From: a virus
Taxonomy: Duplodnaviria > Heunggongvirae > Uroviricota > Caudoviricetes
IMG/VR virus record: IMGVR_UViG_2775506858_000003
Location: 1 to 64,000 of that record
Direction: 5' to 3' (one strand)
DNA: 64,000 bases
The DNA's letters: not shown here
Below: the continuation of a report on this DNA, generated by a model with database tools

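Follow-up and report, generated by a model that had tools for sequence, protein, structure and literature searches.

An intact HNH_5 gene and its predicted fold

The plus-strand ORF 48009-49382 is intact in the window and encodes a product of 457 aa. Its very low GC content, remarked upon in the earlier note, is 26.8%, compared with 43.0% in the window as a whole and 38-45% in the DNA immediately on either side. The gene is under selection, with dN/dS = 0.14-0.41 in comparisons with relatives at 78-98% nucleotide identity. The HMM search for an HNH domain proposed in that note gave a clear match to Pfam HNH_5 (PF14279) at aa 174-222 (E = 1.2e-10; 41.5 bits against a cut-off of 27.5). Residues 169-352 match PHROG 26663, of unknown function. 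A PADLOC v2 scan of the product returned zero matches, and the sole NCBIfam match, to GrpE, is below threshold (E = 0.063; 13 bits, cut-off 137).

Conservation was analyzed in an alignment of 95 relatives, whose columns average 35% identity. The residues G165, C174, C177, H191, E195, G198, N199, K200, E207, C208, D209, N212, K239, Y322, W347 and P389 are invariant, and C211 is kept in at least 90% of the sequences. This pattern points to a ββα-metal site, with a Cys4 zinc site, a general-base His, a structural Asn and the helix Asn. The Cys4, His and Asn of the HNH core read earlier from the sequence are thus conserved; the residue preceding the catalytic His is Ala, not His, in at least 90% of the family (aa 190-191, window 48576-48581). 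Many HNH enzymes carry Asp, Glu or His at this position as a metal ligand, so that a site with Ala is slightly unusual. The invariant E195, E207 and D209 may compensate for the missing ligand.

The HNH core is the most conserved region (2.9 bits), followed by aa 311-410 (2.5 bits), with the N-terminal domain lowest (1.8 bits). Residues ~256-285 are an insertion confined to the gene's own subclade. An AlphaFold2 model calculated with the 95-relative alignment is compact and confident (pLDDT 90.8, pTM 0.87), and sequence and predicted fold together place the protein in the HNH_5 family of the His-Me finger superfamily. No second Pfam domain recurs among the 95 members. The possibility that the N- and C-terminal flanking domains are duplicates of each other was rejected on comparison.

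The flanking IS ends and the surrounding DNA

To the right of the gene lies a complete IS5-family element (49533-50383) with terminal inverted repeats, as described previously. The 16-mer GGGTCTGTTGAACATT is found exactly at 49533-49548 (plus strand) and 50368-50383 (minus strand), with TA at both outer sides. Its minus strand carries a DUF4096 orfA and a DDE orfB, the latter scoring 157 bits on NCBIfam transpos_IS5_3; as read from the sequence, a -1 slip at A_AAA_G could join the two. PLSDB holds no full-length match more than 69% identical to this element.

The solo end on the left (47876-47941), with the same 16-mer at 47926-47941 (minus strand), had been taken for a copy of the same IS. 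This identification does not hold. The inverted match to the complete IS extends over 68 nt at 87%, with full identity limited to the terminal 35 nt. The remnant retains the codons for the last 16 transposase residues. A 33-nt IS end was found on 16 metagenome contigs, among which copies of the type on L130 and L135 are 92-94% identical to the remnant and themselves 87% to the complete IS, so that the remnant belongs to a second isoform. TA precedes the IS end in 17 of 17 copies. The end sequence GGGTCTGTTGAACATTCATAATTTCAACCAAAT is common to several isoforms, which diverge after ~35 nt, and every copy abuts TA. One of these contigs (L138) bears two inverted IS-end copies ~5 kb apart.

Comparison with the uninterrupted islands, contigs L091-L093, defines both breakpoints. 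Identity of 98% covers 47942-49532, whose two limits coincide exactly with the TA dinucleotides abutting the tips of the left remnant and the complete IS. Beyond both tips the window has no match to these islands, the best residual alignment being within the range of shuffled sequence. Transposition of one IS-gene-IS unit would account for both breakpoints in one step. They could also have arisen by two IS-mediated deletions or inversions, independent of each other. Either way two separate IS insertions came first, since the ends are different isoforms with identical 35-nt termini. The left element was truncated later, leaving a unit that is now immobile. One sequencing run gave a 1647-bp contig (L001) that matches the window without a difference and terminates in the IS ends; apart from this, the unit was not found elsewhere, no metagenome in the collection contains the gene/IS junction, and the HNH gene is present in 0 of 16 loci bearing the IS end. 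The decayed composite transposon of the earlier note is thus plausible and mildly favored, homology stopping exactly at both IS tips, but its ends are different isoforms and, L001 aside, no second instance of the unit was found.

The gene sits in a mosaic of mobile-element debris and defense or counter-defense cargo, given what flanks it. On the left, the IS remnant has removed the 5′ end of an AT-rich pseudogene (47129-47876, minus strand) that has one in-frame stop and one frameshift. Along 96-99% of its length it shows ~28% identity to SEC-C-motif (PF02810) proteins of 368-375 aa, and it has zero PADLOC matches. A terminase fragment lies further left. On the right, three consecutive plus-strand proteins (50507-56072) contain DarA_N (twice), InPase, LPD3 and LPD1 domains, bearing out the earlier guess of a polyvalent-protein block and identifying it as a DarA-type, anti-restriction-like locus. 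Inserted within this block on the minus strand is an AT-rich segment (25-32% GC) with a full-length bSEFIR defense gene (56146-57594; PADLOC E = 1.1e-111; Pfam SEFIR and TIR_2) followed by a DUF2726 gene (57649-58293). The window also contains a 200-aa ORF (46479-47081, plus strand) whose N-terminal segment is hydrophobic and which matches no Pfam family; its one PADLOC match is marginal, to a methyl-directed type II restriction enzyme model (E = 0.0016).

Relatives and their genomic neighborhoods

Far from being an orphan, as first supposed, the gene belongs to a large family. A word-indexed search gave 223 homologues, most of 410-480 aa with 80-100% query coverage. Scanning a single genome from each species for a degenerate pattern gave 120 loci, spanning Gammaproteobacteria, Betaproteobacteria, Bacteroidota, Campylobacterota, Desulfobacterota, some Firmicutes and a few archaeal bins. 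When 1.84 billion representatives were searched with a profile, the yield was 2983 clusters at E≤1e-3, 2134 at E≤1e-10 and 880 at E≤1e-30; the best 150 of the 2983 are mostly full-length, at 410-450 aa. Viral contigs yield few relatives, only 20 in 2.9 million contigs, and several of these are at contig ends. The identical protein is annotated 'HNH endonuclease' in Vitreoscilla massiliensis (WP_058356862.1 / UOO89159.1) and shares a 90% cluster with an Acinetobacter baumannii protein; the gene has spread recently between bacterial classes. A 27%-identical full-length paralogue, likewise annotated 'HNH endonuclease', occurs on 77 large Acinetobacter plasmids. On pAba7804b it lies (8896-10275) directly after an IS17 transposase gene.

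HNH relatives reside beside known defense systems, as a search for homologues in defense islands, suggested earlier, revealed. In L091-L093, at 98% nucleotide identity, the gene directly follows Mokosh MkoA (1908 bits) and MkoB (E = 1e-115) in an integrase-bearing island, and in L095-L103 (97%) it occupies the same slot after PDC-M26A/B (E = 0). The DNA common to L091 and L095 starts 374 bp upstream of the gene and extends through a convergent 1538-aa gene; the system further upstream differs between the two. Such swapping of an upstream system beside constant DNA is typical of defense islands. The convergent protein, of 1537-1538 aa, is present in all the 97-98%-identical islands (L091 11553-16166, L095 8125-12741, both minus strand) and missing from the window; it has no Pfam domain and only a weak PDC-M54A match (E = 1.9e-13).

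In A. baumannii contig L094 (JAYWZB010000052.1, 137-11510; 93-94% identity) the copy adjoins an Old/AriA-like ATPase beside Tn7-like tnsA, tnsB, tniB and tniQ, with two unknown proteins of 481 and 623 aa next to it. Only 136 bp of the contig precede the copy, which may lie either within the transposon or outside it. The gene follows a type III Mod/Res pair in L002-L004 (91%; 90% over the shared block), and lies beside a Ppl-like protein, a GIY-YIG protein and an integrase in L005 (78%). A distant Pectobacterium relative (L006) is beside an HNH_2-CTD11 / MC6-MC7 conflict system in an integrase/relaxase island. The vehicles vary across the family, comprising integrase islands, at least one locus adjoining Tn7-like transposition genes, plasmids and prophage edges. 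The capture by an IS happened locally and does not characterize the family.

PADLOC and Pfam searches of 130 ORFs directly flanking distant relatives identified type IIG R-M, AbiLi, AriA, PDC-M68A, mad2, SAVED-HNH, ApeA, HamA, S_4TM, DpnII, EcoEI R, integrases and resolvases, each in 1-3 loci only. A distal control of 92 ORFs, 7-10 kb away, matched PADLOC families at a similar rate per ORF (94 for 92 distal, 151 for 130 adjacent), reflecting either large islands or a blunt measure. The association with defense systems therefore rests on the named loci and not on statistical enrichment.

Possible function and comparison with known systems

No neighbor gene is conserved, the largest neighbor cluster comprising 5 of ~77 loci (all five are metagenome bins or isolates from gut or rumen, and four are Bacteroidales), in agreement with the single-gene nuclease proposed earlier. 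The gene has no partner, no methyltransferase and no NTPase. The restriction or abortive-infection role suggested for it is supported only by context, the copies beside known defense systems, and adjacent and distal ORFs show no clear difference. We infer that the protein is probably a defense nuclease.

Our tentative preference is for direct, methyltransferase-independent restriction of foreign DNA, in a type IV-like manner. A ~430-aa protein lacking an NTPase or second-messenger domain would most simply be a DNA-reading nuclease, near-identical alleles are tolerated in unrelated hosts without an antidote, and the conserved C-terminal Lys, Tyr, Trp and Arg would, speculatively, suit binding of nucleic acid or a flipped base. 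An abortive, trigger-gated HNH nuclease is a less likely reading, which stays in play because the protein showed no recognizable reader fold. There is little to recommend selfish homing or addiction, and a type II enzyme that has lost its methyltransferase, or a silent relic, is similarly improbable, as is a DNA-processing role for a mobile element. We regard the gene as well worth screening experimentally, but not as surprising.

The protein fails every PADLOC v2 system. Septu is ruled out by the lack of a PtuA partner and of a PtuB model match, and type II R-M by the lack of a methyltransferase. A 2017 classification of His-Me fingers includes an uncharacterized 'Group 8 (HNH_5)' (PMC5714182), which may or may not be this family; within a limited literature we found no paper describing or testing the family of the present gene. 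The locus is an IS-scrambled defense-island fragment with a member of a large uncharacterized single-gene HNH family. Like the type IV enzymes the protein is a solitary nuclease, but it has no recognizable reader domain, and the dependence on modified bases that defines type IV is here only a candidate property. Its architecture is unlike that of characterized HNH defense proteins, yet it is of a familiar kind.
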